Assembly: GCA_041478555.1 (NCBI GenBank)
Contig: JBGOWI010000002.1
Coordinates: 14,622 to 78,621, forward strand
DNA length: 64,000 nucleotides
Direction of reading: 5' to 3'
Source of the DNA: Phycisphaerae bacterium
Lineage (GTDB): Bacteria; Planctomycetota; Phycisphaerae; Sedimentisphaerales; UBA12454
Position 1 is the stretch's first letter. Every line of letters begins with the position of its first letter. The notes under the pieces were generated by a model. It saw nothing but the letters and a program-made list of their open reading frames with translations. It was not told the origin of the DNA and did no database searches. The position numbers and the translations under genes were made by a program. Below, in pieces: positions 5,033-49,455 of the stretch.

Positions 5033-5911
5033 ATGGCAAAGACCATTATGAAAAAGCAAATTGGTTTTACATTAGTTGAGCTTTTGGTGGTAATATCGAT
5101 TATCGCCATCCTGTTAGCTGTTCTGATACCTACACTGCAGAGGGCTCGGGGTCAGGCTAAAAATATAGTGTGCAGGAACAACCTCAAACAATGGGGTATG
5201 ATGTTCTCTATGTATGCAAATGCTAATGATGGACGCTTTTTTCCAGGTTATGGGACTCGCCCAGATGGGTATTCTACAAATTGGTGGGTCGCAGGGGAGA
5301 TGTGGATGGTAAAACTGCGTCCCTACTACGGCGGCGTATCTGGCACGGACAGTACGAAAGTTGTAACCGAAGGCCACAAAAGTGGTGATACCGACAAAAT
5401 ACGCCAGTGTCCGAAGGCCACAAAATTCTTGAGTTCCCTACCTGATTGGTTGGAGACTACCCCATTCACAGACTGGGGAATTTATGGCGAAGGAAGACGT
5501 CCGGTTCCTGGACATGGCGAGAAAGGTCTTTATGGCAGCTACGGTATAAATGACTGGGTTCACAACCCACCTCCAGGTAACCCAAACGGCGATGGAAATT
5601 ACTGGAGGACCATGATAAATGTAAAAACTCCGAGTACTGTACCGGTATTTGGTGATTCCGTGTGGGAAGGAACAGCTGCTCGTGACACAGACCAACCTTC
5701 CGGCACGCCGGGCAAGTCACCCAACCTAAGTGGTATGTGGAATTTCTGTATACCACGGCATGGATTAGCTGTGAATTGGGTTTTTTTTGACCTCACTGCC
5801 CGGAAAGTTCCTATCAAGGAACTGTGGAACCAAAAATGGTCGCCAAATTTTATAACATACCAGAGAATAGCAGAGTGGCCGAACTGGATGAACGATGATT
5901 GGGGCAACTGA
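5033..5911 (+). CDS. Prepilin-type N-terminal cleavage/methylation domain protein, DUF1559 (H-X9-DG-like) family
   Basis: MKKQIG|[22 protein letters not shown] is a class III signal. A C-terminal [13 protein letters not shown] motif (H-X9-D) is present. GGAGG lies 9 nt upstream. Confidence 0.85.
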
Positions 5912-6148
5912 GAAACTGAGAAAGGTCCGGGCCTCGATGTGGCTCGAAGGCACTATAGCAAGCTGCAAAGTGGCGCCGTTACCTGACGCATTAATAAGTA
6001 AATACTGTCATCCTGGTTTGTATTCAGGTTTGTGACAAATAACATAATAGCGGGTTGCCAAACCTCCTTATCGTGGCTAATGAAATAGACTGGACAACTG
6101 ATTCAGATATGTTTTTTTACAGAGCTGCTTTTTTTGAGTTGATTGCTT

Positions 6149-16663: not shown

Positions 16664-16724
16664 GTAGAAGACCGTATCCCGGAAACAAACTGTTAACAAA
16701 TTAAAATCTCGAATTGATGGGTAA

Positions 16725-17678
16725 ATGCTTACTATGAAAAAAACTCTCGTTGTTATGGCTGCAGGAATAGGAAGCAGATATAAGGGATTTAAACAAATAG
16801 ATTCAGTTGGTCCTGATGGTGAATTTATTATTGATTATTCAGTATATGATGCTATTAGAGCCGGATTCAATAAAGTTATTTTTATTATCCGGCGTGATAT
16901 CGAACTGGAATTCAAAGCCACAATTGGCAAACGTATCGCAGGCAATATCGAGATTGTTTATAGCTTTCAGGAACTTAATGATTTGCCAAAGCAAATAGAA
17001 ATTAATCCGGAACGAACAAAACCCTGGGGAACGGTACAGGCGATTTTAACGTGCAGCAAACTTATAGATAGTCCTTTTGCGGTTATTAATGCGGATGATT
17101 TTTATGGTAAAGACTCATATAGAAAATTGTCACAGTTTTTGGATACTGCTTTGTTGGACAAAAGTATTTATTGTATGGTAGGATTTAAGCTTAGTAGTAC
17201 TTTATCTGAATACGGCGGTGTGACGCGAGGTATATGTAAGTCAGGAGAAAATAATATGTTAGAAAGTATTGTGGAAACTTCAGGGATTAGTTATAAGGAG
17301 GGTCAAATCTATTTTGAAGATTTGGCTGGAAATAAGAGAGAATTAAGCGGAGATACTTTAGTGTCAATGAATATGTGGGGGTTTACTCCAACAATATTTG
17401 GATTATTAGACGAAGAATTTCAAATTTTTTTACAATCTTATGCAAAAGACTTAAAACAAGAGCTGGTTATACCAACAACAGTGAATAGCTTGATTACTAA
17501 AGGTAAGGCTTTAGTTAAAGTATTAAGTACTTCAAGTGATTGGTTTGGGATTACATATCGCAGCGATAGAGATGAAGTTAAAACGAGAATTCATCAATTA
17601 ATACAAGCCGGGGAATATCCAAATAATCTTTGGAAAGGATGTCCGTTGCTCTGTCCAGCTGAGCTACGAGCGCAATAA
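16725..17678 (+). CDS. Sugar-1-phosphate nucleotidyltransferase family protein; last 12 codons derive from a tRNA fragment
   Basis: VVMAAGIGSRYKGFKQID is an NTP-transferase G-loop. The C-terminal ..GCPLLCPAELRAQ is encoded by the 34-nt tRNA-derived repeat. Confidence 0.7.
   Translation: MLTMKKTLVVMAAGIGSRYKGFKQIDSVGPDGEFIIDYSVYDAIRAGFNKVIFIIRRDIELEFKATIGKRIAGNIEIVYSFQELNDLPKQIEINPERTKPWGTVQAILTCSKLIDSPFAVINADDFYGKDSYRKLSQFLDTALLDKSIYCMVGFKLSSTLSEYGGVTRGICKSGENNMLESIVETSGISYKEGQIYFEDLAGNKRELSGDTLVSMNMWGFTPTIFGLLDEEFQIFLQSYAKDLKQELVIPTTVNSLITKGKALVKVLSTSSDWFGITYRSDRDEVKTRIHQLIQAGEYPNNLWKGCPLLCPAELRAQ
17643..17676 (-). repeat. 34-nt direct repeat, left copy: 5' part (acceptor, D-arm and anticodon-stem start) of a tRNA-Arg gene
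   Basis: tccgttgctctgtccagctgagctacgagcgcaa is identical base for base to 28962-28995. The reverse complement reads GCGCTCGTAGCTCAGCTGGACAGAGCAACGGA. Confidence 0.9.
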
Positions 17679-17753
17679 CTTTTAAGTGCTTGTAATATAA
17701 ACAGTTTTCGCTCATTTTGTCAACTTTTGAAATGTCCGGAAAATCCAAAAAGT

Positions 17754-17962
17754 GTCAAAAAAGCGTCGGTCGCCACCGGTAAACCACTCCAGTTTCTAAC
17801 TTGTTACTCACTTGTCAACCACTTGTAAGTCTCATTTTTGACCAAAAAACGCGATATTTTTTCCCGTCTGCCAAAGCACACATCATCAGGAGTTACATTG
17901 CCGATGGCTTCATGGTATTGCCGGCTGTTGTACCACTTTACGAACCCGGCAATTTCTGTGTC
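17754..17962 (-). mobile_element. IS remnant: the last ~50 codons of a DDE (rve) transposase plus the element end
   Basis: Minus-strand translation reads ..[52 protein letters not shown], a typical rve C-terminal tail. No upstream catalytic part is present. 17754-17857 is repeated at 28823-28915. Confidence 0.75.
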
Positions 17963-18355
17963 AGAGACATAACTACTGCCGCCTATCCGGACTGCCGGGT
18001 CAGTTTCGAGGCTGCTCGCGGCCAGATACTTGGTTTTGCCGGTCTGGTTGGTGCGGGTCGAGGCGAAATGGCTCGTGCTGTCTTTGGTGTTGATCAGGTA
18101 CTGTCCGGTTCGATTACCTTAGTCGGTCGTGAACTGCAAATTTGCTTTGCTAAAGATGCTATTAAAAACGGAATCTATCTTGTGCCGGAAAACCGTAGAA
18201 AACCAGGTCTTGTTGTTGAAATGTCTTTCCGAGAAAACATAACGCTTTCCGATTTTGAAAGCCATGCTGCGATTGGCTTGATAAAAGGCCGGCTGGAAAC
18301 CATCACAGCTCGGTCCCAATCTGAAGCGCTAAGTATTAAAGTGCCGTCTGTTGAA
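17963..18355 (+). pseudogene. Internal fragment of a sugar ABC importer ATPase (RbsA/MglA-type second NBD)
   Basis: ..[55 protein letters not shown].. lacks an N-terminal NBD, and an LSGGNQQK signature is missing after ~18355. Track ORF 17801-18472 is a chimera of this fragment and the antisense IS tail. Confidence 0.7.
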
Positions 18356-18468
18356 ACTTTGTTTTTGGATATGGCGAAAATAGTGTTTAGCGAAACAGGT
18401 GCACTACCAGATTATTCCGGTGCAGTAGAAATTCTCACTCGGCTGAACAAAGTTGACCGGCATTATGA

Positions 18469-18864
18469 TTAGGGCAACGGGGGTGTTACCCAGCCTGTTT
18501 TGACGCTGTAAATAAAACTGCCTCTCGAACGAGTGCTGATATAAACGCAGTGGTTATGGACAGCGAAAGTGGCTTCGATTTTGTTGCTGTCTGGCGTTTT
18601 AATCTGCACCGCACCGTATTGTGCCAGACTGTTTCGCATCTCAGTTCCAAGCTGCAATATTTGTTCGTCAGAAAAACCTGCCCGCCGCATTATTTGCACA
18701 ATATCTTCGGCATTCAAGGCTATAATGTCCCGATTGCTTAAAGGCATAAGCCTAAGCCCGGTATTTGATAACCTTGTGGACTCGCAACTGACCAAAATGA
18801 CTACACCTGTCAACAAAATCAAAATGAAAACAACATTTGTCAACTTATGCCTAATCGGTTTCAT
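18469..18864 (-). CDS. Small lipoprotein, last gene of the secretin operon (pilotin candidate)
   Basis: The signal ends in lipobox ..VVILVS|C (Cys27). It starts 20 nt after the secretin stop on the same strand. No recognisable family. Confidence 0.7.
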   Translation of the reverse strand: MKPIRHKLTNVVFILILLTGVVILVSCESTRLSNTGLRLMPLSNRDIIALNAEDIVQIMRRAGFSDEQILQLGTEMRNSLAQYGAVQIKTPDSNKIEATFAVHNHCVYISTRSRGSFIYSVKTGWVTPPLP

Positions 18865-18884
18865 AGCTGCCTGATTTTCTATTG

Positions 18885-21800
18885 TTATTTATTTAATTGT
18901 TCCTCAAGCTTCTGCTTGAATTCATCTCCAACAGACTCTATTGGCTTTTGTTCTTCGGTTGGCAACCCTGACAGTCGTGACCTCACCTCAGGATCCGGTA
19001 TCAAATGTGCTGTAACAAATATAGCCACTTGTTGAGAAGCTTCCCGATTGGTCTCATTGCGGAACAGCCCTCCCAGTCCTGGCACACGGGAAAGACCCGG
19101 TACGTTCTGTTTGGTTGAGTAGGTCTCGCTCTTTTTAAGGCCTGCTACAGTAACTGTTCCACCATCCTGGATTCGCATGGTATTTTTGACCGTGCGTCTG
19201 CTGACAACCGGGTAATTATCAGTACTACGCATTACAATGTCACTAACCTCAATAGCCAGGTCAAGCGTGATATCGCCGTTTTCTCCGATATGAGGAGTGA
19301 TATTTAATATAGTTCCATATTCAATCTTTTCCAATTCTGCAGGGTTGTAGTAGTAAGGAGCACCTTCCATAGCCTTTGGCAGCAAAGAATAGTATTCCTC
19401 GGTAGTAATTTTAATTTCAGCCTGTTTACCGTCCTGCGCAAGGACCTGAGGACTTGACACTATTGTTGCTTCACCATTTTGCTCAAGAAGGTTCAGAGTT
19501 AATTCCAGCGAATTCGTAAATTCCTGATTCGTTGCATATCCGATCTGGATACCCCATGGCCACTTGGAGCCGACGCCAGCACCGCCTCCATGTATATACG
19601 AACTGGAGAAAATACCGGCCTTAATCTTTGGCCAGCCCCATTCAATACCGAGGTCCAGCAGGTCACTGTTTTGCATTACGACAATTCGGGCATCAAGCAT
19701 AATATGACTTGGTGCTTTGTCAATTTCTTTGAGGTCCGTTTCTATACGCTCTATCAAAGCAGACGGCGCCGTAACACAAATGGTTCCAGTATCAGGATAA
19801 GCCTGGACGTAATTGGCAAAGACAGGTGATAGAAGTTTTACAGCTATATCAGCCTTGAGATAATTTAACTTTATGGACTTTGTCCGGCTTGAAGCCGGAA
19901 AAGCAGCGTCTTTCGGATTAGGTGAGCTGACCAGGTAGTAATCTGGTGTCTTCTTCAGTACATAGCCAGTACCAGCCAGAACTATCTCAAGGGCTTTATC
20001 AAGCGGTACCTCCTTAAGCTCGCAGGTAATCAGGCCAGAAATAGTCTGGTCGGGAATGATTATAATTCCCGCCTGCGAGGCAATGTCCTGCAGAACCTGA
20101 CGCAACTCAGTATCAACAAACACGTTGCTTATGAGAGGTTGCTGAGGTGCCGGCTTTTCAGGAATTTCTGTTGTTTTTTCCTGCTGTTTTTGCGGTTCTG
20201 TAGCTGTTTCAGTTGTTAAATTTGTCGGGGCACCTTCCTCGCTCTTAAGTTGCTCTGGCTGTGATTCTTCAACTTTCGGTTCGGCAGCGGGCTCAGTAAT
20301 GGGTTCAGTTTCTGGTTCCATTACTTGCTCAGTTTGTGAATTAACTTCGGGTACAGCTTCCGGTTCCGCTGTCGCTTTGCTAACTTCCGAGCCCTTAGTT
20401 TTCTCAGGCAGAGGCTTCTGCTCTTCAGTAATTACCTCTTCTTTTTTCTGCTGCTCTGCAGTTTCCTGCTGTTGAGGAAGCTTTGGTGTTTCTTCTTCCT
20501 TTTCGACGATATTTGAAGTAACATTGATATATCTCTTGCTGGGCGGTGAGAACATATAACCTGCTTTTGTTGGCGTAACTGTTCCGGACCAGCCATAGTC
20601 GACGGTTAAATGATATTCACCATTGGCATTAGTCGTATCGGAGCTTCCGCCATTGTCGGCTGATACCAACACTCCTTCAGTAGGCACGCCGTCAAAGATA
20701 ATTTTACCTGAGATGGTACAGATAATTAAGGTGGCGTTGTAGTTTTGATTGCTCAGATTCTCTATCACTTTGCGATATTCTTGCTTTGGAGCTTCGAAGG
20801 TATAACCGTCCTTGATGGGTGTAATCGTGCCGCTCCAGCCATGCTTAACCAGAAGCTCATACTGACCGTTCGCATTGGTTTTTGCCGAACCTCCCGCATT
20901 GCTTGCGTTTATTGAAACATCCTCAACGGGTTTTTGACCGCGGGTAACCGCGCCGGCAATGGCATAGGTCAGTATCTGAGCCTGATAGTTCTGCGGCTGG
21001 TCTTCCGCAACTTTTGGGTATATTTTTTTGGCTGGTTCGAAAATGCAGCCTTCTTTTACAGGTGTAACTGAACCGCTCCATCCATAATCGACAATAGCGC
21101 TGTAATAGCCTTCTTCATTGGTAATCGGCTCTCCCGGCAAACCCTTCATGACAACGCTGCTTATCGGCGTATCAGCGGCTATTTTGCCGGATATGATAAA
21201 GCTCATCAGCTCCGGAGTATGGTTCCGCACCTGATTTTCTGTTACAGACTCATATATTCTATTGGCAGGATTGAAGCGATAGCCTTCCTTTGTCGGCGTA
21301 ACGGTGCCGCTCCAGCCATAGCCGACCGTTGCAGCGTACTGGCCGTTAGCGTCAGATGTTGGATTACCTGGCAGACCTTCCATTACCACGCCGTCAATAC
21401 CGACCGAGCCGGAAACAGTATAAGTAAGCAGCTTTGCGGTATAGTTCTGAGTCTGATGCGTGGTAACGGGCTCGTATTTTTTGTTAACCGGTTCAAAGTT
21501 ATAACCCTTCTTTGTTGGCGTAATGACACTGCTCCAGCCGTAGTTGACGGTCGAGCTGTAATAGCCATTCTCATTGGTAACCGGATCGCCCGGCAGCCCA
21601 TACATAACTACGCCGCCTAAAGGTGAGTCGCCGATTGTAATTGTACCGGAGACAGTGCACGTTAATATTTCTGCGGTATAGTTCTGATTGTCTATGCTTG
21701 TTGTAACCTCAGTATATTTGCGGCTTGAGAGGTCAAAAGTATAACCTTCTCTTTTCAGAGTAACTTCGCCGCTCCAGCCGTAATTAATTGAAATAGTATA

Positions 21801-22454
21801 CCGTCCTTTTTCATTGGTTGTGGCTGAACCGCCGCTGTTGTTGGCCGAAACAGATACGCCTTCCATCGGAACACCGCCTATGGTTACTATCCCGGAAATA
21901 GCAAAGCTCAACAGTGAGCTGGTGTAGTTTTGGTTGGCCTCCGGACGGGTTATGTTTGCATAAGTGCGGTTGGCCGGCTTGAACACATATCCTTCTTTTA
22001 TCGGCATAACCGTGCCACTCCAGCCGTGTCCGACAAGGGTATTATAGTTGCCGTCTTTGTCGGTTACCGGCTCGCCCGGCAGCCCACTCATTACCACACC
22101 GCTGGTGCCCACTGAACCGGAAATCTGGTAATTAATCAGCGAAGCTGTGTAGTTCTGGGCGGTTTGGTCGGCAGTAACAGGTTCATACTTTTTGCTGCTT
22201 GGCTCGAAGTTATAACCTTCTTTTGCCGGCGTTACCGTGCCGGACCAGCCATATTCGATTGTGACGCTGTAATTGCCTTTGTCATCGGTAACAGGATTAC
22301 CGGGGAGGCCTTTCATTACGACGCCATCCAGACCTGCTGTGCCTGAAATAGTGTAGGTTATTTTTGTCGCTTTGTATCCGAAACACAAAGTGCTATTGAG
22401 AAGGACACAAAGGACCAATCCGACGCTTAAAATTTTAACTGTATTTTTTGGCAT
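18885..22454 (-). CDS. Atypical secretin: signal peptide, 8 beta-sandwich repeats, acidic P/E/T/Q linker, N0/STN-like domain, secretin N-domain and C-terminal secretin domain
   Basis: The C-terminal ..GGTVTVAGLKKSETYSTKQNVPGLSRVPGLGGLFRNETNREASQQVAIFVTAHLI is a secretin hallmark. RQVLQDIASQAGIIIIPDQTISGLITCELKEVPLDKALEIVLAGTGYVLKK is STN/N0-like. IKLNYLKADIAVKLL..ICVTAPSALIERIETDLKEIDKAP is Secretin_N-like. Confidence 0.88.
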   Translation of the reverse strand: MPKNTVKILSVGLVLCVLLNSTLCFGYKATKITYTISGTAGLDGVVMKGLPGNPVTDDKGNYSVTIEYGWSGTVTPAKEGYNFEPSSKKYEPVTADQTAQNYTASLINYQISGSVGTSGVVMSGLPGEPVTDKDGNYNTLVGHGWSGTVMPIKEGYVFKPANRTYANITRPEANQNYTSSLLSFAISGIVTIGGVPMEGVSVSANNSGGSATTNEKGRYTISINYGWSGEVTLKREGYTFDLSSRKYTEVTTSIDNQNYTAEILTCTVSGTITIGDSPLGGVVMYGLPGDPVTNENGYYSSTVNYGWSSVITPTKKGYNFEPVNKKYEPVTTHQTQNYTAKLLTYTVSGSVGIDGVVMEGLPGNPTSDANGQYAATVGYGWSGTVTPTKEGYRFNPANRIYESVTENQVRNHTPELMSFIISGKIAADTPISSVVMKGLPGEPITNEEGYYSAIVDYGWSGSVTPVKEGCIFEPAKKIYPKVAEDQPQNYQAQILTYAIAGAVTRGQKPVEDVSINASNAGGSAKTNANGQYELLVKHGWSGTITPIKDGYTFEAPKQEYRKVIENLSNQNYNATLIICTISGKIIFDGVPTEGVLVSADNGGSSDTTNANGEYHLTVDYGWSGTVTPTKAGYMFSPPSKRYINVTSNIVEKEEETPKLPQQQETAEQQKKEEVITEEQKPLPEKTKGSEVSKATAEPEAVPEVNSQTEQVMEPETEPITEPAAEPKVEESQPEQLKSEEGAPTNLTTETATEPQKQQEKTTEIPEKPAPQQPLISNVFVDTELRQVLQDIASQAGIIIIPDQTISGLITCELKEVPLDKALEIVLAGTGYVLKKTPDYYLVSSPNPKDAAFPASSRTKSIKLNYLKADIAVKLLSPVFANYVQAYPDTGTICVTAPSALIERIETDLKEIDKAPSHIMLDARIVVMQNSDLLDLGIEWGWPKIKAGIFSSSYIHGGGAGVGSKWPWGIQIGYATNQEFTNSLELTLNLLEQNGEATIVSSPQVLAQDGKQAEIKITTEEYYSLLPKAMEGAPYYYNPAELEKIEYGTILNITPHIGENGDITLDLAIEVSDIVMRSTDNYPVVSRRTVKNTMRIQDGGTVTVAGLKKSETYSTKQNVPGLSRVPGLGGLFRNETNREASQQVAIFVTAHLIPDPEVRSRLSGLPTEEQKPIESVGDEFKQKLEEQLNK
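20505..22364 (-). repeat. Eight tandem ~78-aa coding repeats (CarboxypepD_reg/prealbumin-like beta-sandwich) in the secretin N-terminal region
   Basis: Signature [IL]xYx[IV]SG....GVxMxGLPGxPVTxxxGxYxxxVxYGWSGTVTPxKEGYxFxPxxxxYxxVxxxQxNQNYTA is seen 8 times (aa ~31-650). Confidence 0.85.
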
Positions 22455-22456
22455 AT

Positions 22457-24127
22457 TTAGCCCCCTTTAATAATAGGCTCAATAACTTCAACAATTCTCT
22501 GGCCACCTCTGCCAGAGACTTGTATGGGTACTATTTTGGTTGCTTTTCCGCCGCCGCCATGCTGCATAATTGCCTCGAGACGATATACGCCGGCAGCGAT
22601 TCCGGAAAAATCAAGTATTCCGGAGAAGTTTCTGATTTCAAGCGGCAGCATAAGACCTGTCTCGCCGGTCAGTAATATGCTTTTCACCATCGTGCCTTGA
22701 GGCGTTGTGAGTTCGGCTGTGCATCGTGGGCTCAGATGTATCGTTCCTATATTGCCGAATCTGCCGATGATTGCATAGCGGGAATTTCCTTCATCAGCAA
22801 CCGTTACCTTCATTGCCTGAGCAATAGGCTGAGCTTTCTGCTGTTTGTTCTCAAGGCACAGTATCGCATTTGTCAGGCCGGCGTTCTGACCGTCAGTGCT
22901 GTATTTGGCTGACAGTGTAATATCCGAATAATAATTGCTTTTCATTGATTCTGCCCTGGGCATATTTGTAACAATGCGAACGCCCTGCGAAGCACCAGGC
23001 CTGAGCGTGAATTTGTCGGGAACAACCTTGACCCATTCGGAACAAACCAGCTCCTCACCCTGCAGCTCGCCGAAGGCAACGCCCTTCAAAACGGCCGGCG
23101 TTGTCGCAGCAGCCACAATATCAATGGTGCTGTCCGAGGCATTTCGAACCTTTAGTACCGCCGACCGTGTTGCCCCGGGTGCGATGCTTATGAACAGCTC
23201 CGGCGGTTCCAAATCGAGCGCCGCATCAGCAGCAGCTTTCTTAATAGCCGGGTCGCCAACAAAGTCTATCTCTTTCTCAATAGGTTTTGCTCGTCTTCCA
23301 TCTATGTAAAGTTTGCCGTTTAATTTGTATTTCCCCGACGGCAGCGACCGGCCTATATCACTTTTTAAATCCAAGGTTATGCCGGGAATAATTCCGACTT
23401 CCTTGATTTTTGCGGTAGTGATGTTGCGCCAATGGCCGCCGGAGAATACCTGAGCGGTTATACCGCCGGTAAGACGTGAAAATTTTTTGCCGTTGTTTTC
23501 TACCTTCATTGACAGAAGGGTTGTTGCGGCTGATTGTTCGGCTGGCATTTTAAACTGCATATCGACATCGGTCAGCTCCACCTTCTGGAGCATTGTGCGG
23601 CCCTGTATCTCGACAAGAATTGGGATTAAAAACCGTATGATTATAGCGCTGCCGTTTGCATCCGGTTTTGGTCTGGTCTGGATAGTTATACCAGCGATGT
23701 AAAATCCCTGGGCGCGAGAAGGCACTCTAACGGCAAATTCGACTGCTCCTCCGGAAAGAGGTGCAAGTTTTATGCTGTCATTTTTAAGTTTTATCCATTC
23801 TCGACAGGAAGGAACTTCGGACGTGTTAACATCAGAACCCTGTTCGATAACTCTCGGACTGCCGTCTTCAGATTGAGTTATATCGACTACGCCTATGTCC
23901 ATTGTCATTACCTTGTTAGGCTCTTCATTTAGGACATGTATAACTTGTGTGATTTTATTGCCGGCATACGGTTCAAGTTCTATCTTCATAGGCCTGACAC
24001 GAAACTTGTCGGCCCAGGTCAATGGTGCCAAGTAGAGAACAACGGCAAGAGCACACAGCCTCCACAGTGTGTAGTAGTTATAAATCGTCAGAACCTCATT
24101 TTTCTTCTGAGCTTTCATATCACCCAA
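22457..24127 (-). CDS. Secreted 556-aa protein made of an internally duplicated two-domain beta-rich unit (Ig-like; PapD-chaperone/DUF916-like by pattern)
   Basis: Signal ..LCALAVVLYLAPLTWA|DKF. Unit 1 is aa ~45-290 and unit 2 aa ~300-556. The units share ..C[RS]EW[IV]K...D.[IF].L.P......V...V..P.. and a second domain ending in G.Y.L.. . Its stop lies 2 nt before the secretin start. Confidence 0.8.
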   Translation of the reverse strand: MGDMKAQKKNEVLTIYNYYTLWRLCALAVVLYLAPLTWADKFRVRPMKIELEPYAGNKITQVIHVLNEEPNKVMTMDIGVVDITQSEDGSPRVIEQGSDVNTSEVPSCREWIKLKNDSIKLAPLSGGAVEFAVRVPSRAQGFYIAGITIQTRPKPDANGSAIIIRFLIPILVEIQGRTMLQKVELTDVDMQFKMPAEQSAATTLLSMKVENNGKKFSRLTGGITAQVFSGGHWRNITTAKIKEVGIIPGITLDLKSDIGRSLPSGKYKLNGKLYIDGRRAKPIEKEIDFVGDPAIKKAAADAALDLEPPELFISIAPGATRSAVLKVRNASDSTIDIVAAATTPAVLKGVAFGELQGEELVCSEWVKVVPDKFTLRPGASQGVRIVTNMPRAESMKSNYYSDITLSAKYSTDGQNAGLTNAILCLENKQQKAQPIAQAMKVTVADEGNSRYAIIGRFGNIGTIHLSPRCTAELTTPQGTMVKSILLTGETGLMLPLEIRNFSGILDFSGIAAGVYRLEAIMQHGGGGKATKIVPIQVSGRGGQRIVEVIEPIIKGG

Positions 24128-24170
24128 TTGACTTTTTTAACACTTTTTCTCTATATTATCTGTCTTGCCT

Positions 24171-24199
24171 ATATTACCATTTTTGTTAAAAAAAGTCAA
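24171..24199 (-). promoter_or_regulatory. Sigma70-like promoter of the 556-aa/secretin/lipoprotein operon
   Basis: The minus strand reads TTGACT-17 nt-TAATAT, about 45 nt upstream of the ATG at 24127. Confidence 0.5.
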
Positions 24200-24378
24200 T
24201 TTTAAGGCCATACTCTCTGTTTATTTTGCCTGTTTTACCAAGATAGGATTAGTTTCAGACTAATAAAAGCGTTTTTTTAGGACTTTGATTCAGGTATTGT
24301 CACTATTTTTCCGGTACCCCTCTCTCCGAGCCTGAATTTAAAAGTAGGTATGACGATTTTTTTTGACTGCTGGGTTTT

Positions 24379-24485
24379 TATACCGCACCTATTTAAAAAG
24401 TATATCTTTGGTAAAACGTAAGTATCTTTTTAATAAGTTCTTGAATACAATGATTGGGGCGCCGAAATTAAATAGGTGCGGTATA
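24379..24485. repeat. Perfect 18-bp inverted repeat with a 71-nt spacer
   Basis: TATACCGCACCTATTTAA (24379-24396) and TTAAATAGGTGCGGTATA (24468-24485). Confidence 0.9.
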
Positions 24486-24490
24486 ATCTA

Positions 24491-24531
24491 TAAAAAAACA
24501 GGAAGGGCTTTCAGTTAATCAACCCTTCCTG
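24491..24531 (-). terminator. Rho-independent terminator after the 169-aa subunit gene
   Basis: The minus strand reads CAGGAAGGG-loop-CCCTTCCTG followed by TTTTTTTA. Confidence 0.8.
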
Positions 24532-24555
24532 CTTGAACTTTTTCAGACCTGCTTT

Positions 24556-25065
24556 TTACAGATTGTCATTCACAGTCAGCAATACTGTTGCGACCCGCTG
24601 AACGTGAGGACTTGAAGGTATGTAAGTAATGTCCACGTTGTTCACTGCTGCGCCGACATAAAATATCCTGCCGACCGGTGGCGGGGCGGGAATATCAAAT
24701 GCCATCTCATCAGTATCATCTTCCAGTATCCACTCAGCTCTGTTCTGAGGCAAATTCTGCGGATAGTCGGCAAGAGCAACCAGATACTTTGCAGTTGGTC
24801 CCAGTGATGGACCGAAGGGGACTATCATAACTGTAACCAGAACCGGAAAGTTATGCGTCATAGTTACGGCAGTATAGCCACGGTAAAGCGGATGAACACC
24901 AGATGGGTCGCCGAGTGTAAGTAGTATTTCTGCCGGGTCAATTGTAAGGATTACTGTTTTGTCAATCAGCATCACAACAGGAATTTGCGCTTGAGCCAAT
25001 ATCCCACCAGCAAATGCCGGAGCTGCTGTCAAAGCAATTGCTGCTAATGTCAGTATTTTTTTCAT
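24556..25065 (-). CDS. Small secreted beta-rich protein, putative fibre subunit (paralog of 25982-26488)
   Basis: Signal MKKILTLAAIALTAAPAFA|GG. The mature protein begins with an alternating hydrophobic stretch (IPVVMLIDKTVILTIDP) and ends VATVLLTVNDNL. It is collinear with its 168-aa paralog. Confidence 0.8.
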   Translation of the reverse strand: MKKILTLAAIALTAAPAFAGGILAQAQIPVVMLIDKTVILTIDPAEILLTLGDPSGVHPLYRGYTAVTMTHNFPVLVTVMIVPFGPSLGPTAKYLVALADYPQNLPQNRAEWILEDDTDEMAFDIPAPPPVGRIFYVGAAVNNVDITYIPSSPHVQRVATVLLTVNDNL

Positions 25066-25164
25066 TGTTTCTCGACTCCTTTCTTAGATTAAGTTTTGCT
25101 CCAAAAGACCGAATAATTAACCTGATGAGGCTGGCCATAATTTCTTTGTTCTAACCTCCGATTT

Positions 25165-25374
25165 TTAACCTCCCTTCTCCCCTGTTTTTCGTGAGTTAAT
25201 AACACCTTTATAGTAAGAATCAGATGTCTGCTCTCCGTAGTGAGAAATACTGCCAAGTTTGATTTCATCAGATACAGAAATGCTGGCGAATGGTTCAAGA
25301 GGGTATGGCTGTGCCTGCAACACTGCTCCACCCCAGAGGCGGAACATCAAAGTTACTGACAACCTCCGTGCCAT
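25165..25374 (-). pseudogene. Truncated copy of the 145-aa subunit gene (first ~50 codons retained)
   Basis: MARRLSV...LEPFASISVSDEIKLGSISHYGEQT aligns with EPFASISVPDKIDLGSASQYGQQT of 26842-27264 and then diverges to a stop. The flanks show that a few hundred bp present in cassette 2 (the rest of the subunit gene plus part of the long leader) are missing here. Confidence 0.6.
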
Positions 25375-25405
25375 CTTCGCTCCTTCCCTAATTTATCCTA
25401 TTCCT

Positions 25406-25435
25406 TTACTATGCCAGCCTTTTTGAAATTGTCAA
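25406..25435 (-). promoter_or_regulatory. Sigma70-like promoter of subunit cassette 1
   Basis: The minus strand reads GGGTATTGACAATTTCAAAAAGGCTGGCATAGTAA. The same -35 context is repeated at 27410-27420. Confidence 0.4.
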
Positions 25436-25746
25436 TACCCAAACCTCCTGTTTTTTCTATTTTATATAAGTTCCCTATTTATAATTATTAAGGATAAAAA
25501 CAGATAGCATAAATTTAATCATCGAGTGTCCGCCGTTCGTTTAGCACCTCAAAGAGGTAGGGGATCGCGTCAAACTGTTGCGGTTGCGAGGCTCGTTTCG
25601 TATTACGTTGTACGATTGCGTCTTAAATGACATTTCACGATAAACGCAGCCGTAACGGGCATCGCAACCAATTAGTTAAATTTCCCCTGTATCTTTACTT
25701 CTCTAAAAATCGGCGTAATCTGTTTAATCAGTGATTGATAAACACA

Positions 25747-25786
25747 ATAAAAAAGCAGGAAGGACTAATTACTTAGCCCTTCCTGC
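25747..25786 (-). terminator. Rho-independent terminator after the 168-aa subunit gene
   Basis: The minus strand reads GCAGGAAGG-loop-CCTTCCTGC followed by TTTTTTA. Confidence 0.8.
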
Positions 25787-25981
25787 TTAAACTTTTTCAG
25801 ATTGCAGGATTTTTTAAAATCCTACCCTCTTTGCCGCATCATTGCAGCCGCTTACTGTTCATACTGCAGAGTACTTATTTCCTGCAGATGAAACAACGTT
25901 GTTACATCCGTTACGAACTTTACATTTTACCCTTGTATCCTCCGAAGCTTTAGCGAAGGAGGGTAACAATACTCCTGCTCT

Positions 25982-26488
25982 TTACAGATTGTCACTTACT
26001 GTCAGCAATACTGTTGCAACCTGCTGAGCAGCAGGACTTGAAGGTATAAAGCCAATGTCCACATTAGCTACTGCTGCACCGACATAAAATAGCCTACCGG
26101 CTGGCGGGGCGGGAGTCGTGAAGTCCATGTCGTCGGTATTGCCTGCTGCTTGCCACCCAACGTACGTTTGAGGCAAATTAATCGGGAAGTCGGCAAGAGC
26201 GACATGATATGTGGCAGCTGCTCCCAGTGATGGACCGAAGGAGTTTATCAATGCTGTAACTGTAACTGGGAAGTTATGCGTCATAGTTACGCCAGTATAG
26301 CCACGATAAAGCGGATTACCTAAATTCGGGTCGCCTATCGTAAGTAATATTTCTGGCGGGTCGACTGTAAGGTTTACGGTCTTGTCAATCACCATCATAA
26401 CAGGAATCTGCGTTTGGGCTAATATCCCGCCGGCGAATGCCGGAGCTGCTATCAAAGCAATTGTTACTAATATCAGTAATTTTTTCAT
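25982..26488 (-). CDS. Small secreted beta-rich protein, putative fibre subunit (paralog of 24556-25065)
   Basis: Signal MKKLLILVTIALIAAPAFA|GG. THNFPVTVTALI and a C-terminal VATVLLTVSDNL are shared with the paralog. Confidence 0.8.
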   Translation of the reverse strand: MKKLLILVTIALIAAPAFAGGILAQTQIPVMMVIDKTVNLTVDPPEILLTIGDPNLGNPLYRGYTGVTMTHNFPVTVTALINSFGPSLGAAATYHVALADFPINLPQTYVGWQAAGNTDDMDFTTPAPPAGRLFYVGAAVANVDIGFIPSSPAAQQVATVLLTVSDNL

Positions 26489-26841
26489 TGTCTTAACTCC
26501 TTTCTTAAGTTAAGCTTTGCCCTTGTAAGGCCGATAAACAGCCTGACAGGACTAACCATAATTAGGTGTTCGGGACTCTCTTTTGGGTCTCGAACTCTAC
26601 TGCAGCGGGCATATCCGCTTGGGCGACTGGGTGGGTTGCCCGCTCTTTCTAACTCCACCTGAGCCGCAGCCTGCATCTTGTTTACAGCCTAAAGACCAGG
26701 CCGGTTTCTTTGGGCTGTTGCATCGCCTCTCGTTTTTTGTCCTACCCTCCTTTCTCCCCTTGCGAGTTTTTTCTTCTATAGGTTAATAACATTTTTTAAA
26801 TGAGCTTTATTTACACGCAACTACGCTGTTGCGTCTGTTTT

Positions 26842-27264
26842 TCAGGGTTCAGCCATTATGGTAATGACCAGAGTGCCTGTATATTCTCCTGCCGAGTCGC
26901 TGGATTTGATATCAATAGTGAACTTTAGATTTATATCCACATCGACGCCTTCAGGAGGAGTGCCTGACGAGACTAATGGCGGCACCATTTCAACATTGGT
27001 TCTTTCCTTCGGAATAAAACCTCCGGCAGGACTTGCAAACGCTCCTCCGATTGATGCGATGATACGATGAGGACAATTAGCGGTTATATGTACTTTTATG
27101 GTGGAATTAAATGTTTGCTGACCATACTGGCTGGCACTGCCGAGGTCGATTTTGTCGGGTACGGAGATGCTGGCGAACGGTTCTGCCTGTAGAGTAGTTC
27201 CTCTCCCCAGGCAGAATACTAAAATTACTGCCACAAATAGTATTATGTATCCACTCCGTGCCAT
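26842..27264 (-). CDS. Small secreted protein with SCPU/fimbrial-subunit-like features
   Basis: The track ORF starts at 27279; ATG 27264 has GGAGGAGCGAAGG upstream and matches the paralog start. Signal ..ILVFCLGRGTTLQA|EP. IKVHITANCPHRIIASIGG and the C-terminal SAGEYTGTLVITIMAEP resemble spore-coat-U/Csu-type and type-1 pilin ends. Confidence 0.75.
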   Translation of the reverse strand: MARSGYIILFVAVILVFCLGRGTTLQAEPFASISVPDKIDLGSASQYGQQTFNSTIKVHITANCPHRIIASIGGAFASPAGGFIPKERTNVEMVPPLVSSGTPPEGVDVDINLKFTIDIKSSDSAGEYTGTLVITIMAEP

Positions 27265-27387
27265 CCTTCGCTCCTCCATATATTTATCCTGTTTTTTCCT
27301 TTCTTTAGTTGAAACGTTACATTTTCAAGGTTGAAATTGCCGATAATACAAAAACTTATGCTCGTTAAACCATTTCTTATAGGACTT

Positions 27388-27415
27388 ATTTTACCAGCCT
27401 TCTTTAAATTGTCAA
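27388..27415 (-). promoter_or_regulatory. Sigma70-like promoter of subunit cassette 2
   Basis: The minus strand reads TTGACA-16 nt-TAAAAT, within a block conserved with 25406-25440. Confidence 0.45.
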
Positions 27416-27723
27416 TACCCAAACTTCCTAAATTGCCCATTTTTCACCATTTTTCCATTTTGCCATAAAAGGACAAAAAAAAACAGTTTTTATTTCAAAA
27501 AATTTGGTTAACTGCTTTAGCTAAAAGTGGTTATATTAATTTGGTGGTATCGGATAAAAACTACTTCTTAATGTAGACTATCTTGTTATTTTAGAATGAG
27601 GTGTTTCTTGAGCAGTATTATTATGTGAATATAGGCAGAAAATATAACCTGTGTTAAGCAACGTGTGATTACAAAACACTTTCTTTTAGGCGAAGAGCGG
27701 TAAAACTTAAAGACAAGCAGCCG

Positions 27724-28410
27724 TCAAGAATTAGAGTTGTTAGCATCATCCACAAAAAACTCGTTTTGGCTCAACCTCTCGAAAAAATCATTTTCTTGGG
27801 ACAGAGTCTCGTTTTGCTCCGTAAGCATCGTGTTCTCATCGGCCAGATGAGTAGTTTTCTCCGCAAGAGATGCATTTTCCGCTGTGAGCCTGTTATTTTC
27901 TGCGCTTAGCTGCTCTATCCTGATACAGTACTCTCTTGCAGCCTTTCTGATTTGGTCGTTCAGTATTTCGATTCTCTCTGTAAGTTTTTGATTTTCCTCG
28001 GTAATTGTTTGATTGCCGGCTGCCAGTGTTTCTGTCTGGCCGATGAGTGTTTCGAGCTGATTTTCGAGTGTTTCAATTTGGCTAACAAGTTCCTGATTTT
28101 CACTTAAAAGCTCGGCATTCTGGCTGGAGAGGGTATGACTCTGGGTTTCAAATTCCTCAGCAAGCATCCGGGCTTTCTTCTGTTCGAGGCTCAGGTGTTC
28201 ACTTAACTTTTGTTTTTCCATCTGTAGATGGCTGATGGTCTGAATCATTGTCTGTCTTTCTTTGAACAGCAATGCGGCAGCGCCGGTTAAAGCAAGCAAA
28301 ATTACCGTCAGCAAAGATACCACAATAACTCTGCGCCCCAGGCCTGATTTGTGCATTCTTTTGCCGTCTTCGTTAGACGATGTATCAAATGTATTTTCAC
28401 TGAAATCCAT
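27724..28410 (-). CDS. Bitopic membrane protein with a ~170-aa coiled-coil ectodomain
   Basis: One TM segment (VIVVSLLTVILLALTGAAALLF) is followed by heptad-rich Q/E/N/L sequence (..ENQELVSQIETLENQLETLIGQTETL..). Confidence 0.7.
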   Translation of the reverse strand: MDFSENTFDTSSNEDGKRMHKSGLGRRVIVVSLLTVILLALTGAAALLFKERQTMIQTISHLQMEKQKLSEHLSLEQKKARMLAEEFETQSHTLSSQNAELLSENQELVSQIETLENQLETLIGQTETLAAGNQTITEENQKLTERIEILNDQIRKAAREYCIRIEQLSAENNRLTAENASLAEKTTHLADENTMLTEQNETLSQENDFFERLSQNEFFVDDANNSNS

Positions 28411-28470
28411 TTTTATCCTCTTTTATGTAATCAGATAACATTTATAGAACCTTCCCCATTTCTGTTATGA

Positions 28471-28499
28471 ATTTTAACACAAAAAACGCTTTGGTTCAA
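28471..28499 (-). promoter_or_regulatory. Sigma70-like promoter of the coiled-coil gene
   Basis: The minus strand reads TTGAAC-17 nt-TAAAAT. Confidence 0.4.
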
Positions 28500-28822
28500 C
28501 AGTAAAACGCGTTTGGGGCCTTTGGCGGGCGGGTTGTGTTTATTCAGCGAGTAGGCAGGCGGTTTTTATGGGTCATTGAGAAAAAATTTACTTAAGTGCA
28601 CAATACTGTCTACGATAAAAACCGGACTATCGCCGGTTGTGAGCCGGGTTGTTTCTGCGCAACTGAATCCTTGACAGGGACATCTCTGAATAACTTGTAA
28701 TTTCGTTGCCATGAGAGTGTTATCTATGAGCGGTTTTTTGAAATCGTATCGAAGGACTATTCAAATCCAGTCAGTCATATCAACTGACCAATTCGGTCTT
28801 ACCACAGAAAAAGCTCAATATT

Positions 28823-28915
28823 GTCAAAAAAGTGTCAGTTGCCACCGGTAAATCACTTCAGTTTCTACTTGTTACTCACTTGTCAACCTCATTTTCGGCC
28901 AAAAAACGCAATATA
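28823..28915 (-). mobile_element. Second remnant of the same IS end (about 90 nt, with an 11-nt deletion)
   Basis: gtcaaaaaagtgtcagttgccaccggtaaatcacttcagtttctacttgttactcacttgtcaacc..ggccaaaaaacgcaatata aligns with 17754-17857 in the same orientation. Confidence 0.75.
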
Positions 28916-28940
28916 ACCATTCGGTGACACTTGAGTTATA

Positions 28941-28993
28941 AACCCCTTATCGGATTAGAAATCCGTTGCTCTGTCCAGCTGAGCTACGAGCGC
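28941..28993 (-). pseudogene. Truncated tRNA-Arg(UCU): acceptor 5' strand, D-arm, anticodon arm and variable loop; the T-arm and 3' acceptor are missing
   Basis: The reverse complement reads GCGCTCG TA GCTC AGCTGGACA GAGC A ACGGA TTTCTAA TCCGA TAAGG GGTT, then unrelated sequence. There is no TTCGAAT T-loop and no CGAGCGC 3' strand. Confidence 0.75.
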
Positions 28994-29107
28994 AAGGGTT
29001 TTTCCTGAGACATACTTTATATTCCGGCCGGCAGTATTGTAAGAAGATTAAGCGCAACGTGTAGATATAGCGGTGCTTTCCTGTCCTGCGGCAGATTTGA
29101 AGAGGAG

Positions 29108-29135
29108 TTGCTTTTTTAAATCCTTGTGATACAAT
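29108..29135 (+). promoter_or_regulatory. Sigma70-like promoter upstream of the ATPase gene
   Basis: TTGCTT-16 nt-TACAAT. Confidence 0.35.
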
Positions 29136-29219
29136 CACAGTTACCGTATTTTGAGCTGTTCCATAATGGCGCTATTGGCTGTAAATTATAACTCGAAACT
29201 AATCTGTTAAGGTGATGCC

Positions 29220-34777: not shown

Positions 34778-35016
34778 TTCTTTAATCATTTAGAACGTGT
34801 AATTATCGGGTGTTGACAAGTCCCCCATAGGGAGGAGGACGAAATCAATCTCCCAAAGAGTGTAAAAGATATGCTCCGAATGCAGTCAGAGTTTGGAGGT
34901 GTGTCTTGTAAAATTTATTTATAGTGTTTGGTATTCGAATGTTAAACTTTTAAAGTGTCGTATTTGTAACCCGAAATGAAGAAGTGTTCCTTAATTTTTT
35001 TAAGGAGGAGTAGATT
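34778..35016 (+). promoter_or_regulatory. Conserved ~240-nt 5' leader, copy A (candidate cis-regulatory RNA)
   Basis: Near-identical to 38205-38439; the core is shared with 36003-36125. It contains a CTCCGAA-11 nt-TTTGGAG hairpin, C-rich/G-rich alternative pairing segments and the SD-covering hairpin TCCTTAA-ttttt-TTAAGGA (34988-35006). Confidence 0.5.
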
Positions 35017-35760
35017 ATGAAGAAACTAATTGTTTGTTGTTTTATGTTGGTTGTGTTAAGCATGCCAGCATATGCGGATTTCACTGTGACGACAATTGCC
35101 GACCTGTCTGCATGGCCGGATTCGCCGCAGGTTAAATGCACAGTGAATCCTGGCACTGACACCACACCCGCCAACGGCCAACCCTATTCGCCAGAGCAGA
35201 ACTGGGGTGGTGGCGCTCTGCAGCAGCTTGGTCAGGTTTTTATGGTTCCCAGCTCGTACATCGGAACTCCAACATTGGACAAGGTTGCCGTTAAACTCAG
35301 CGGTACTGCTGGCACCTTGAGCGTCAAGTTGTATGACCTTTGGCCGGGAGACTTCAATGATAATTTCCACGGATGGGGCAATGGCAACCAGGGGACCTTG
35401 AGTCCTGTTAACCTTACGACCAACGCGACTCTCTTGATTAACGACACGTGGGCTTATCCAGGCAGTGCCACCGCGAAGGTGTATCTGTTGGATTTCACTG
35501 GCAGTCAAGAGGTAGCACTTGCGTATGCTGAAAAGTATATGTTCGTACTGGATCATGATAATACTTTTCAGGTGTCGTGGTACCGCAATGGCCTCTATAG
35601 CTACACCGATGGTGATGTGTATAGAGACACCGGCGCGGGTACTACTATGCAGTATGTCAATGGTGCTGGCCGCGAGGCCGGTATGGCTGTCTATATTCCC
35701 GAGCCGGCGACTATCGCTCTGTTAGGTCTTGGACTGGCTTTGCTCAGGAAGCGCAGCTAA
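35017..35760 (+). CDS. Secreted PEP-CTERM-anchored protein (unassigned beta-rich ectodomain)
   Basis: Signal MKKLIVCCFMLVVLSMPAYA and C terminus IPEPATIALLGLGLALLRKRS. A strong RBS taaggaggag is present. Confidence 0.9.
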   Translation: MKKLIVCCFMLVVLSMPAYADFTVTTIADLSAWPDSPQVKCTVNPGTDTTPANGQPYSPEQNWGGGALQQLGQVFMVPSSYIGTPTLDKVAVKLSGTAGTLSVKLYDLWPGDFNDNFHGWGNGNQGTLSPVNLTTNATLLINDTWAYPGSATAKVYLLDFTGSQEVALAYAEKYMFVLDHDNTFQVSWYRNGLYSYTDGDVYRDTGAGTTMQYVNGAGREAGMAVYIPEPATIALLGLGLALLRKRS

Positions 35761-38204: not shown

Positions 38205-38439
38205 TTCTTTAGTCATTAGGATGTGTCGTTATCGGGTGTTGACAAGTCCCCCATAGGGAGGAGGACGAAATCAATTTCCCAAAGAGTGTAAAAGATATGC
38301 TCCGAATGCAGTCAGAGTTTGGAAGTGTGTCTTGTAAAATTTATTTGTAGTGTTTGGTATTCGAATGTTAAACTTTTAAAGTGTCGTATTTGTAACCCGA
38401 AAGAAGAAGTTTCCTTAATTTTTTTAAGGAGGAGCAGAA
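38205..38439 (+). promoter_or_regulatory. Conserved ~240-nt 5' leader, copy C
   Basis: Near-identical to copy A, including the SD-covering hairpin at 38412-38430. Confidence 0.5.
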
Positions 38440-39192
38440 ATGAGAAAATTATTTGTTTTGTTAGTTGTAGCAGCTTTGAGCATGTCGGCCTATGCAGATA
38501 AGGTTATAGGCACCTGGGAGGTTGGAGAGGTTAACGGCGGTGGATGGAGTGATTGGTCCAGCCAAGCCCGCATTGGTCCGTTCCCTCAAACTATAAATGG
38601 CAACACGTATAACCAAAGCACAATTGGTGTTTCTAATGGGAACAACTCCCTGTCGGTGGCCGCAAAATCAGGTTGGCAGCAGTGCTTGACTATTCGTAAC
38701 TATCAGAGCACATTAGGTTTTTACATGTCGGATTTCCTCAATAACAACAAATTCCAGATTGACGTTACCTATGATAGCGGTAGCTGGCCCTCAAATACGA
38801 GTTATGCTCAGGTGTACCAGTTAGCTATGCAGACCTCAGGCTATGGAATGCATGATGTAGGTGGAACAGCTGCCCCAACCGGCGCCAATGGCGTAGTGTT
38901 TACTGATACGCTCAACCCGGGTTATCCGGGAGGTTTACCCCTTGTGAATCAGGGTACGCCGGGAACCGTCCTATCGGGAACATGGACGTGGGATTACTCC
39001 GCAATATTACCCGGAGGGTCCTATACCGGTAACAAAGTTTCGGCTTCCGATTCGTATGTGAATATTATGTTCGCATTGAATTCCAATGCGGCCGGGACTT
39101 ACTACTTCGACAATGCCCGGCTTACTCCCGAGCCGACGACAATCGCTCTGCTGGGTCTTGGATTGGCTCTGCTCAGGAAGAAAAGAAGCTAA
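38440..39192 (+). CDS. Secreted PEP-CTERM-anchored protein (unassigned beta-rich ectodomain)
   Basis: Signal MRKLFVLLVVAALSMSAYA and C terminus LTPEPTTIALLGLGLALLRKKRS. Confidence 0.9.
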   Translation: MRKLFVLLVVAALSMSAYADKVIGTWEVGEVNGGGWSDWSSQARIGPFPQTINGNTYNQSTIGVSNGNNSLSVAAKSGWQQCLTIRNYQSTLGFYMSDFLNNNKFQIDVTYDSGSWPSNTSYAQVYQLAMQTSGYGMHDVGGTAAPTGANGVVFTDTLNPGYPGGLPLVNQGTPGTVLSGTWTWDYSAILPGGSYTGNKVSASDSYVNIMFALNSNAAGTYYFDNARLTPEPTTIALLGLGLALLRKKRS

Positions 39193-49445: not shown

Positions 49446-49455
49446 CTGTCCTTTT

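Follow-up and report, generated by a model that had tools for sequence, protein, structure and literature searches.

The 64-kb stretch analysed here (hereafter the window), part of contig JBGOWI010000002.1 of a planctomycete metagenome-assembled genome (MAG) from the order Sedimentisphaerales, carries an 11.3-kb island between two genes of a sugar-utilisation locus, one for a sugar-phosphate nucleotidyltransferase (NTase) and one for an MsmX-type ATPase (msmX). The island is bounded by two identical 34-nt direct repeats that are the 5' half of a tRNA-Arg gene, it contains a secretin gene cluster that in a related genome is followed by an intact tRNA-Arg gene, and close relatives have either one decayed copy of the repeat or no repeat at all at the same junction. 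The interpretation put forward here, on which we stand evenly poised between acceptance and doubt, is that the island is a defective, integrase-less but native tRNA-linked element that was inserted, by way of a circular form, at a scar left by the 5' half of a tRNA-Arg gene. All coordinates below are in window numbering, and L and P numbers denote loci and proteins of relatives.

The repeats, their tRNA-Arg origin and the allelic states of the junction

The features that define the two ends of the island are the following.

16725..17678, plus strand: sugar-phosphate nucleotidyltransferase (NTase), Pfam NTP_transferase, last gene of a galactan/GNB-type operon
17642..17675, minus strand: left repeat, tRNA-Arg(UCU)-type 5' half, bases 1-32 and 2 upstream bases, fused to the NTase gene
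17676..17752, minus strand: predicted tRNA promoter region, with TTGACA-18-TATATT at 17723..17694, 20 nt upstream of the tRNA half
28951..28995, minus strand: right tRNA-Arg(UCU) fragment, bases 1-43 identical to real genes; the right repeat is its part 28962-28995
28996..29219, plus strand: spacer from the right repeat to msmX, 224 nt, 96% identical to L001
29220..30329, plus strand: MsmX/MalK-type ABC ATPase (msmX) by Pfam, whose start overlaps the NTase 3' end in ancestral-type relatives (L003)

The 34-mer TCCGTTGCTCTGTCCAGCTGAGCTACGAGCGCAA is present exactly twice in the 64 kb, at 17642-17675 and 28962-28995, identical and on the plus strand in both places; it did not occur in any of 100 shuffles, and no third copy was found within the window even with up to three mismatches allowed. 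An earlier note on this DNA had already described identical repeats in the same orientation, with the right copy correctly placed and the left copy one base too high (17643-17676). Read as its reverse complement, the 34-mer consists of TT and then the opening 32 nt of tRNA-Arg(UCU), bases -2 to 32 of the tRNA. The identical 32 nt stand at the start of tRNA-Arg(UCU) genes annotated in MAGs of Pirellulales and Actinomycetota, which bears out the tRNA-Arg(UCU) 5' origin that the note had proposed for the repeat. A scan of a genome collection with this tRNA half returned matches in six MAGs, all of them from other phyla; neither a Sedimentisphaerales genome nor that of the window was among them.

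The two copies differ in how far they continue into the tRNA. Aligned with annotated tRNA-Arg(UCU) genes, the left copy ends at the first base of the anticodon loop, whereas the right copy matches real genes over 43 nt, including the anticodon arm (anticodon TCT), and is unrelated beyond. ARAGORN finds no intact tRNA in the window, and Rfam scores 28926-28993 on the minus strand, which covers the right copy only, at 28.0 bits, under the 29-bit threshold and with a broken T arm. The statement that the right copy runs through the anticodon arm and that no intact tRNA is left is thus correct. A truncated tRNA-Arg(UCU) in an Ignavibacteria MAG (L017 246-289), which breaks off past the anticodon arm and lies some 550 nt upstream of a DDE_Tnp_1 transposase gene, was considered as a related case and set aside as unrelated, being a gene interrupted in the vicinity of a DDE transposase gene.

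At the left end, the NTase gene draws its final 11 codons and one further base from the repeat; the tail of the protein reads NLWKG-C-PLLCPAELRAQ, and the stop codon lies just past the repeat, outside it (the earlier note, right in deriving the C-terminal codons from the repeat, had counted 12). In a tail alignment, NTase homologues all part ways after NLWK. On the opposite side of the repeat, a promoter scan gives a score of 11/12 for a near-consensus TTGACA-18-TATATT directed at the left tRNA half. In the relative L008, an intact tRNA-Arg(CCT) gene follows the same secretin cluster (82% nucleotide identity to the window), and the 5' half of this tRNA and its upstream sequence are 88-90% identical to 17648-17772, a stretch made up of the left repeat and, after it, 78 nt and then another 20. 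Because of this alignment and the promoter, the left repeat can be read as the remainder of a tRNA gene that keeps its promoter and is joined, at the anticodon loop, to the NTase gene. Judged by sequence, it is not a target duplication but the truncated 5' half, predicted promoter included, of the tRNA-Arg gene that is the natural neighbour of the cluster.

By its NTase homologues the window belongs to the Sedimentisphaerales (Planctomycetota), and the junction occurs among relatives in three states. In state A, found in L003, L004 and L005 at 88% nucleotide identity, NTase overlaps the start codon of msmX and there is neither repeat nor spacer; the same arrangement is implied by homologues with the tails GCYGTGIA, GYNGTGVA and ERYGASIT, which correspond to the msmX start read in the NTase frame. 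In state B, found in L001 and L002, NTase is followed by one decayed copy of the repeat, which aligns to both window copies, then by a 226-nt spacer and msmX; proteins P0282 and P0283 have the tail of this state as well. State C, that of the window, is state B with 11.3 kb between two perfect copies. A single NTase cluster at 90% identity holds all three states, its alleles differing at no more than 12 of 294 core residues, and P0281 (state A, tail GCHGTGIA) is identical to P0283 (state B) over the whole 294-residue core. Since all three tails are found among near-identical NTase alleles, both the piece of about 255 nt and the 11.3 kb vary within one species-level population. Hence NTase and msmX are indeed adjacent where the island is lacking, as the earlier note had expected, and even overlap. 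Its predicted empty site, NTase followed by tRNA-Arg and msmX, does not occur in that form: the closest relative has a single-copy empty site, but no intact tRNA is present at the NTase/msmX junction in any relative compared. Past the msmX stop codon synteny with both relatives is lost again, so that the locus appears to be a rearrangement hot spot. A metagenome scan with a 22-mer from the spacer returned the L002 contig only, and no exact-protein matches of msmX and of the GH53-like gene are on record.

The divergence between the window and L001 is sharply mosaic. When 16700-17675 is compared with L001 9970-10951, the first part (16700-17449) has 3 differences in 750 nt (0.4%), while 17450-17596 has 23 in 147 (15.6%), of which outgroups assign 9 to L001 and 5 to the window and leave 9 ambiguous. 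Further on, the repeat differs at 7 of 34 positions, the spacer at about 5% and msmX at 3.3%. Such a mosaic indicates that, within the NTase gene, these populations often undergo homologous exchange with each other. All 7 differences in the repeat are departures of L001 from the canonical tRNA, and the window copies, of 34 nt and 43 nt, have no such departures, which mildly favours window copies that were recently derived from a tRNA, either through insertion into state B or through later conversion. Two other views of the L001 repeat were dropped: it is not a chimera of CCU- and UCU-type halves, being a decayed UCU type by inspection, and its divergence is not excessive, since it is no outlier next to the adjacent 147 nt.

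The repeat R and its conserved unit with a linker and a tRNA half

Inward of the tRNA-derived repeats, each end of the island has a copy of a second, longer repeat, here called R, in the company of the following features.

17753..17857, plus strand: R_left, a repeat of about 105 nt with three ACTTGT hexamers at 11-nt spacing, called an insertion sequence (IS) end in the earlier note
17873..17985, minus strand: C-terminal fragment of an IS3-family (rve_3) transposase, a pseudogene, by translation; NCBIfam IS3 match weak
18000..18340, plus strand: fragment of a two-domain sugar ABC-transporter ATPase (AraG/RbsA/XylG type), a pseudogene, by translation; NCBIfam AraG 6.5e-24
28822..28913, plus strand: R_right, second copy of R, with exactly one 11-nt ACTTGT unit fewer
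28914..28949, plus strand: 36-nt linker from R to the anticodon arm, homologous and of the same length in L001 and L006

The two copies (17753-17857 and 28822-28917) are about 87-91% identical with one 11-nt indel, stand in direct orientation and start with TG, and no inverted partner of R exists in the window. A profile of R finds further copies at L001 12641-12742 and L006 6275-6374, and in L003 a partial copy comes straight after the msmX stop; none of these three has an IS nearby. Moreover, the first 20 nt of R also occur in L008, as ordinary sequence upstream of the tRNA gene and again with no IS there.

R belongs to a larger conserved unit. At three loci, namely the window (tRNA-Arg, inverted), L001 and L006, R plus the 36-nt linker abuts the anticodon arm of a tRNA. 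In L001 and L006, the homologous 36-nt linker comes after R and leads into the anticodon arm of a tRNA-Asp(GTC) of which the 3' half is present and the 5' half is not. The linkers of the window and L001 align without gaps and are identical at 19 of 36 positions, and the anticodon stems at the linker edge are the same in the tRNA-Arg and tRNA-Asp units (TCGGA...TCCG). The tRNA-Asp units (L001 12641-13121 and L006 6275-6465) have surroundings on the chromosome that are unrelated to each other, and in L001 a 69-aa fragment of a tyrosine integrase follows about 100 nt beyond the tRNA-Asp half. By their sequence and layout, the units of L001 and L006 look like remnants of attachment (att) sites of an element family, and the 11-nt-phased ACTTGT hexamers in R resemble the arm-type protein-binding sites of an attachment site, a role that is putative here.

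In addition, L006 has in contiguous order R, the linker, the tRNA piece, about 50 nt and a block homologous to window 17709-17765. The window splits the same pieces between the two ends of the island, with R, linker and tRNA (bases 43 to 1) at the right end and tRNA (bases 32 to 1), promoter, block and R at the left end. The order in L006 is the one predicted for the circular junction of the island. The arrangement in the window is what would be expected if a circle with one such unit had crossed over, within the tRNA half, with a copy of that half on the chromosome. The spacer at the right end also has something in common with the left end: 29113-29153 is a 41-nt paralogue of 17679-17719, the sequence just upstream of the left tRNA half (score 29 against 16.6 +/- 2.2 in shuffles, reached in 0 of 1000). 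It lies 117 nt from the right tRNA fragment, and its left counterpart lies 4 nt from the tRNA half. Because the spacer holds this promoter-proximal paralogue, state B may itself be the scar of an earlier related event.

Origin of the island and rival explanations

In the proposed course of events, the island would have reached the NTase/msmX junction as a circular molecule, with a circle junction that ran from R through the linker, tRNA-Arg(1-43) and the promoter to R. Its partner in recombination, via the tRNA 5' half, would have been a decayed tRNA-Arg 5'-half scar that already stood at the junction (state B), and integration would have duplicated the tRNA 5' half, giving rise to the 34-nt direct repeats. 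The polarity of such an event would be the rare "reverse" one: the element contributes at its end a 5' half equipped with a promoter, and the 5' fragment that it displaced remains adjacent to the spacer on the host side. Site-specific recombination is the probable mechanism, acting in or close to the anticodon arm or the D arm; it would have been supplied in trans by a related element, with R (its 11-nt-phased ACTTGT hexamers) and the linker together forming an arm of the attachment site. We infer insertion rather than deletion, and with it a circular intermediate and the involvement of an integrase.

A good deal weighs against this proposal. Neither the island nor the 64-kb window contains an integrase, an excisionase or another recombinase: the island has no PF00589-like open reading frame (ORF), and tblastn with the integrase fragment of L001 finds nothing in the window. 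No intact tRNA stands at either end of the island, and the left junction fuses the tRNA half to the NTase coding sequence and not to the 3' half of a tRNA. If a perfect copy had crossed over with a decayed one, one decayed copy should be left, yet both are perfect, which means that the target was undecayed at the time or that gene conversion followed. The origin of state B from state A, with about 255 nt inserted and only a 4-nt GATG duplicated, is left without explanation. Furthermore, the clusters of L008 and L030 lie in ordinary chromosomal contexts without flanking repeats, R is absent from the viral, plasmid and phage collections searched (R core in viral contigs, whole island in plasmid and phage collections), and a circular or excised form of the island has not been observed.

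The same facts could be read in the opposite direction, which we regard as possible but doubtful. State C would then come first within this clade, formed when an 11.6-kb chromosomal segment was inserted once, by illegitimate (microhomology) joining, into the NTase/msmX overlap; this segment would have started at the anticodon loop of the tRNA-Arg gene linked to the cluster, continued across the cluster and ended with a second tRNA-Arg fragment plus the spacer upstream of it. Homologous recombination between the 34-nt repeats would later have produced state B, and a GATG-mediated deletion state A (with a CAT codon). Several observations sit well with such a history. The junction between NTase and repeat is identical in L001 and the window, the 4-nt GATG stands at both outer edges, and P0281 equals P0283 over 294 residues and has the CAT codon of the right junction of states B and C, as a precise deletion predicts; in addition, deletion between direct repeats needs no recombinase. 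However, the 34-nt and 43-nt copies would have had to stay canonical over a time in which 7 positions changed in the L001 copy and both lineages contributed to a divergence of 15.6% in the neighbouring 147 nt, and 34 nt is near the lower limit of RecA-type recombination. State A with a TAT junction is, moreover, widespread in more distant relatives, so that the insert is derived either way. The outer edges of the whole insert share only the GATG; a longer similarity, as a long target-site duplication would give, scored 20-22 there and was not above chance (18.4 +/- 2.3 in shuffles).

The explanation given by the earlier note, an IS-bounded island resembling a composite transposon, in which R represents the IS termini and the IS mobilised the cargo, is very improbable, even though the left R is followed by a transposase C-terminal fragment in the correct orientation and R begins with TG. 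The note was right that a sequence of about 100 nt is repeated near both tRNA-derived repeats, but this sequence is not demonstrably an IS terminus. DNA and protein homology to IS3-type transposases stops at GRREKI, short of R, and the usual last 37 or so codons are absent and not recognisable in R. Transposase sequence adjoins the left R only and the right R has none, which leaves the second IS missing. The direct orientation of R, the lack of an inverted partner, the IS-free copies in L001, L003 and L006 and the plain tRNA-upstream sequence of L008 also speak against IS ends. An assembly artefact, in which a chimeric metagenome contig was falsely joined at the 34-nt repeat, is hardly credible. 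The window does come from a MAG contig, and neither the left junction nor the join of right repeat and spacer is bridged by an independent contig, the Logan contig L022 ending inside the right repeat. Nevertheless, two mis-joins would be needed at a repeat far below read length, the stop of L022 inside the right repeat is what a k=31 assembly should give, and stretches inside the island, up to 28980, are matched at 100% identity by nine contigs obtained independently from five samples. The population of the window is present in JGI 3300052988, SRR35961417, SRR35959917, SRR35969293 and SRR29604878. Moreover, the exact NTase with its repeat-encoded tail is on record from a 106-kb contig, and the state B relatives show the junction of NTase and repeat independently.

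As for the pseudogenes next to R_left, the fragments at 17873-17985 (minus strand) and 18000-18340 (plus strand) abut each other between the tRNA promoter region and the cluster. Homologues of the transposase fragment are 68-85% identical; a search with it returned short rve_3 remnants only, with a context in L020 that is unrelated to the island. The fragment belongs to a widespread metagenomic set of rve_3-only ORFs of about 70-98 aa (P0224-P0241). The AraG match of its neighbour covers profile positions 284-397 only, within the second domain.

If the proposed insertion is taken one step further, the island could belong to an undescribed Sedimentisphaerales family of integrative elements that target tRNA anticodon arms, with an att site composed of R, the 36-nt linker and a tRNA half, and with a switch of target (from tRNA-Asp to tRNA-Arg) and of polarity, the tRNA-Arg version bringing a tRNA 5' half together with a promoter. 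The island would then be an integrase-less member mobilised in trans, moving a secretin surface-structure operon from one chromosomal site to another within the species. We consider this extension rather unlikely.

The secretin cluster and comparison with known systems

All intact genes of the island lie on the minus strand and form one cluster, with the following products.

18469..18864, minus strand: lipoprotein-like protein, 131 aa, last gene of the cluster, by ORF; beside the secretin gene also in L008, L011 and L030
18885..22454, minus strand: secretin, 1189 aa, Pfam Secretin PF00263 4.2e-38, with Secretin_N, STN and CarboxypepD_reg
22457..24127, minus strand: secreted protein, 556 aa, four Ig-like beta domains; AlphaFold pLDDT 87; 103 homologues
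24556-25065 and 25982-26488, minus strand: paralogous signal-peptide proteins, 169 and 168 aa, 70% identical
26842-27279, minus strand: secreted protein, 145 aa, by ORF and Pfam scan; syntenic in L008
27724-28410, minus strand: membrane-anchored coiled-coil protein, 228 aa, with the 145-aa protein the first genes of the cluster; syntenic in L008

The secretin has a C-terminal Secretin domain (PF00263, 131 bits against a cut-off of 27.5) and, at its N terminus, eight tandem CarboxypepD_reg-like repeats of about 80 aa, seen in the DNA as repeats about 240 nt apart. In NCBIfam it scores 145 bits for PilQ (cut-off 284) and 136 bits for GspD (cut-off 351), too low for either; by these profile scores it is a member of the secretin superfamily that falls into none of the named subfamilies. 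It thus shares with the secretins of type II secretion systems (T2SS) and type IV pili (T4P), GspD and PilQ, the C-terminal Secretin domain together with Secretin_N and STN, but stays below all named subfamily cut-offs and has eight extra N-terminal repeats. Likewise, unlike T2SS and T4P clusters, that of the window has no pilins, ATPase or platform protein and instead encodes the four-Ig-domain protein and small secreted proteins; a Pfam and NCBIfam search of the island proteins for such partners (ATPase, platform protein, N-methylated pilins) gave no match. For the modelled 556-aa protein, the best compact match in the PDB is WxLIP, the fold search otherwise suggesting generic arrays of Ig domains. 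A tandem duplication took in the gene for the 169-aa protein together with some of the sequence around it, the 300-nt cores being 76% identical; L012 is 100% identical to the window in this respect, and L008 and L030 have a single copy. The structure model of the 169-aa protein, with a pLDDT of 39, is not usable. From its gene content, the cluster may specify a so far undescribed surface structure that depends on the secretin.

As a module of 6-7 genes, with over 100 homologues in metagenomes, the cluster is conserved in the Sedimentisphaerales: it is present at 18469-28410 in the window, 7089-15642 in L008, 7149-15629 in L030 and 77-5719 in L011, and the chromosomal contexts of L008, L011 and L030 differ. 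In L011 (87% identical), the lipoprotein gene is followed at 5764-6117 by a frameshifted IS630-type transposase gene and then by a comM-like gene. The composition of the island is native as well: its GC content is 0.447 against 0.468, and in tetranucleotide correlation (0.867) it falls inside the span covered by other segments of the window (0.818-0.948), so that the comparison of GC and k-mers proposed in the earlier note gave no sign of foreignness. Hence, of the "acquired cargo" that the note had seen in the secretin cluster, the segment inserted between tRNA-derived repeats remains, and foreign DNA does not.

The closest known counterparts are tRNA-associated islands with tyrosine integrases, of the lambda, P4 and integrative and conjugative element (ICE) types. 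As in these, a multi-kb segment lies between tRNA-derived direct repeats, close relatives have an empty site with one repeat copy, break points fall at the anticodon arm, and a relative has an integrase fragment beside a homologous unit of arm and tRNA half. Unlike them, the island of the window has no integrase and no intact tRNA at either end, its repeats are a 5' half and not a 3' part, its target would be a tRNA-fragment scar between two protein genes, and its composition is native (deviation being typical but not obligatory). Integrase-less, cis-mobilisable derivatives of integrative elements, flanked by att sites, are known as CIMEs from the Streptococcus ICESt literature. By analogy, the cargo of the window lies between putative att-like repeats with no recombination genes of its own, and its mobility would need a related element in trans; the host, in contrast, is a planctomycete. 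Elements with a "reversed target orientation", which recombine with the 5'-distal part of a tRNA gene, were reportedly described by Zhao and Williams in 2002. The window would agree with them in the duplicated 5' half, in an element copy with its own promoter and in a displaced 5' fragment beside host upstream DNA, and would differ in that it regenerates no functional tRNA and has no integrase. A paper that cites Zhao and Williams calls recombination with the 5'-distal part "considerably less frequent" than with the 3'-distal part (PMC6563490). The resemblance to an IS-bounded composite transposon is limited to the transposase fragment and to the repeated sequence of about 100 nt near both ends, whereas the direct orientation, the transposase at one repeat only, the lack of a terminal inverted repeat and the lack of a convincing target duplication set the island apart.

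Other repeats occur elsewhere in the window. Two paralogous PEP-CTERM proteins (35017-35760 and 38440-39192) have upstream of them a 187-nt direct repeat (34790-34976 and 38216-38402) whose copies are 96% identical. A big minus-strand array of paralogues at 46275-60837 contains many repeat families with periodicities of 2.1 kb and 3.4 kb, and its first gene encodes a CBM_4_9/GH30-like protein.

In summary, an island first taken for an IS-bounded foreign one is better described as native, defective and tRNA-linked. Islands of this type are already known, and the current view of genomic islands is not overturned; for specialists in mobile elements, the details of interest are the 5'-half polarity, the R-linker unit common to tRNA-Asp and tRNA-Arg, and a secretin operon as cargo. 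The window would provide a concrete case of a rare tRNA-island polarity, in which a 5' half and its promoter are duplicated, and the conserved unit of arm and tRNA half could be used to find active elements and their integrases in these genomes. For the organism, the three states of the junction mean that a whole secretin envelope cluster is gained or lost at the strain level inside a polysaccharide-utilisation operon, in a poorly studied order of planctomycetes; msmX retains a separate upstream spacer.

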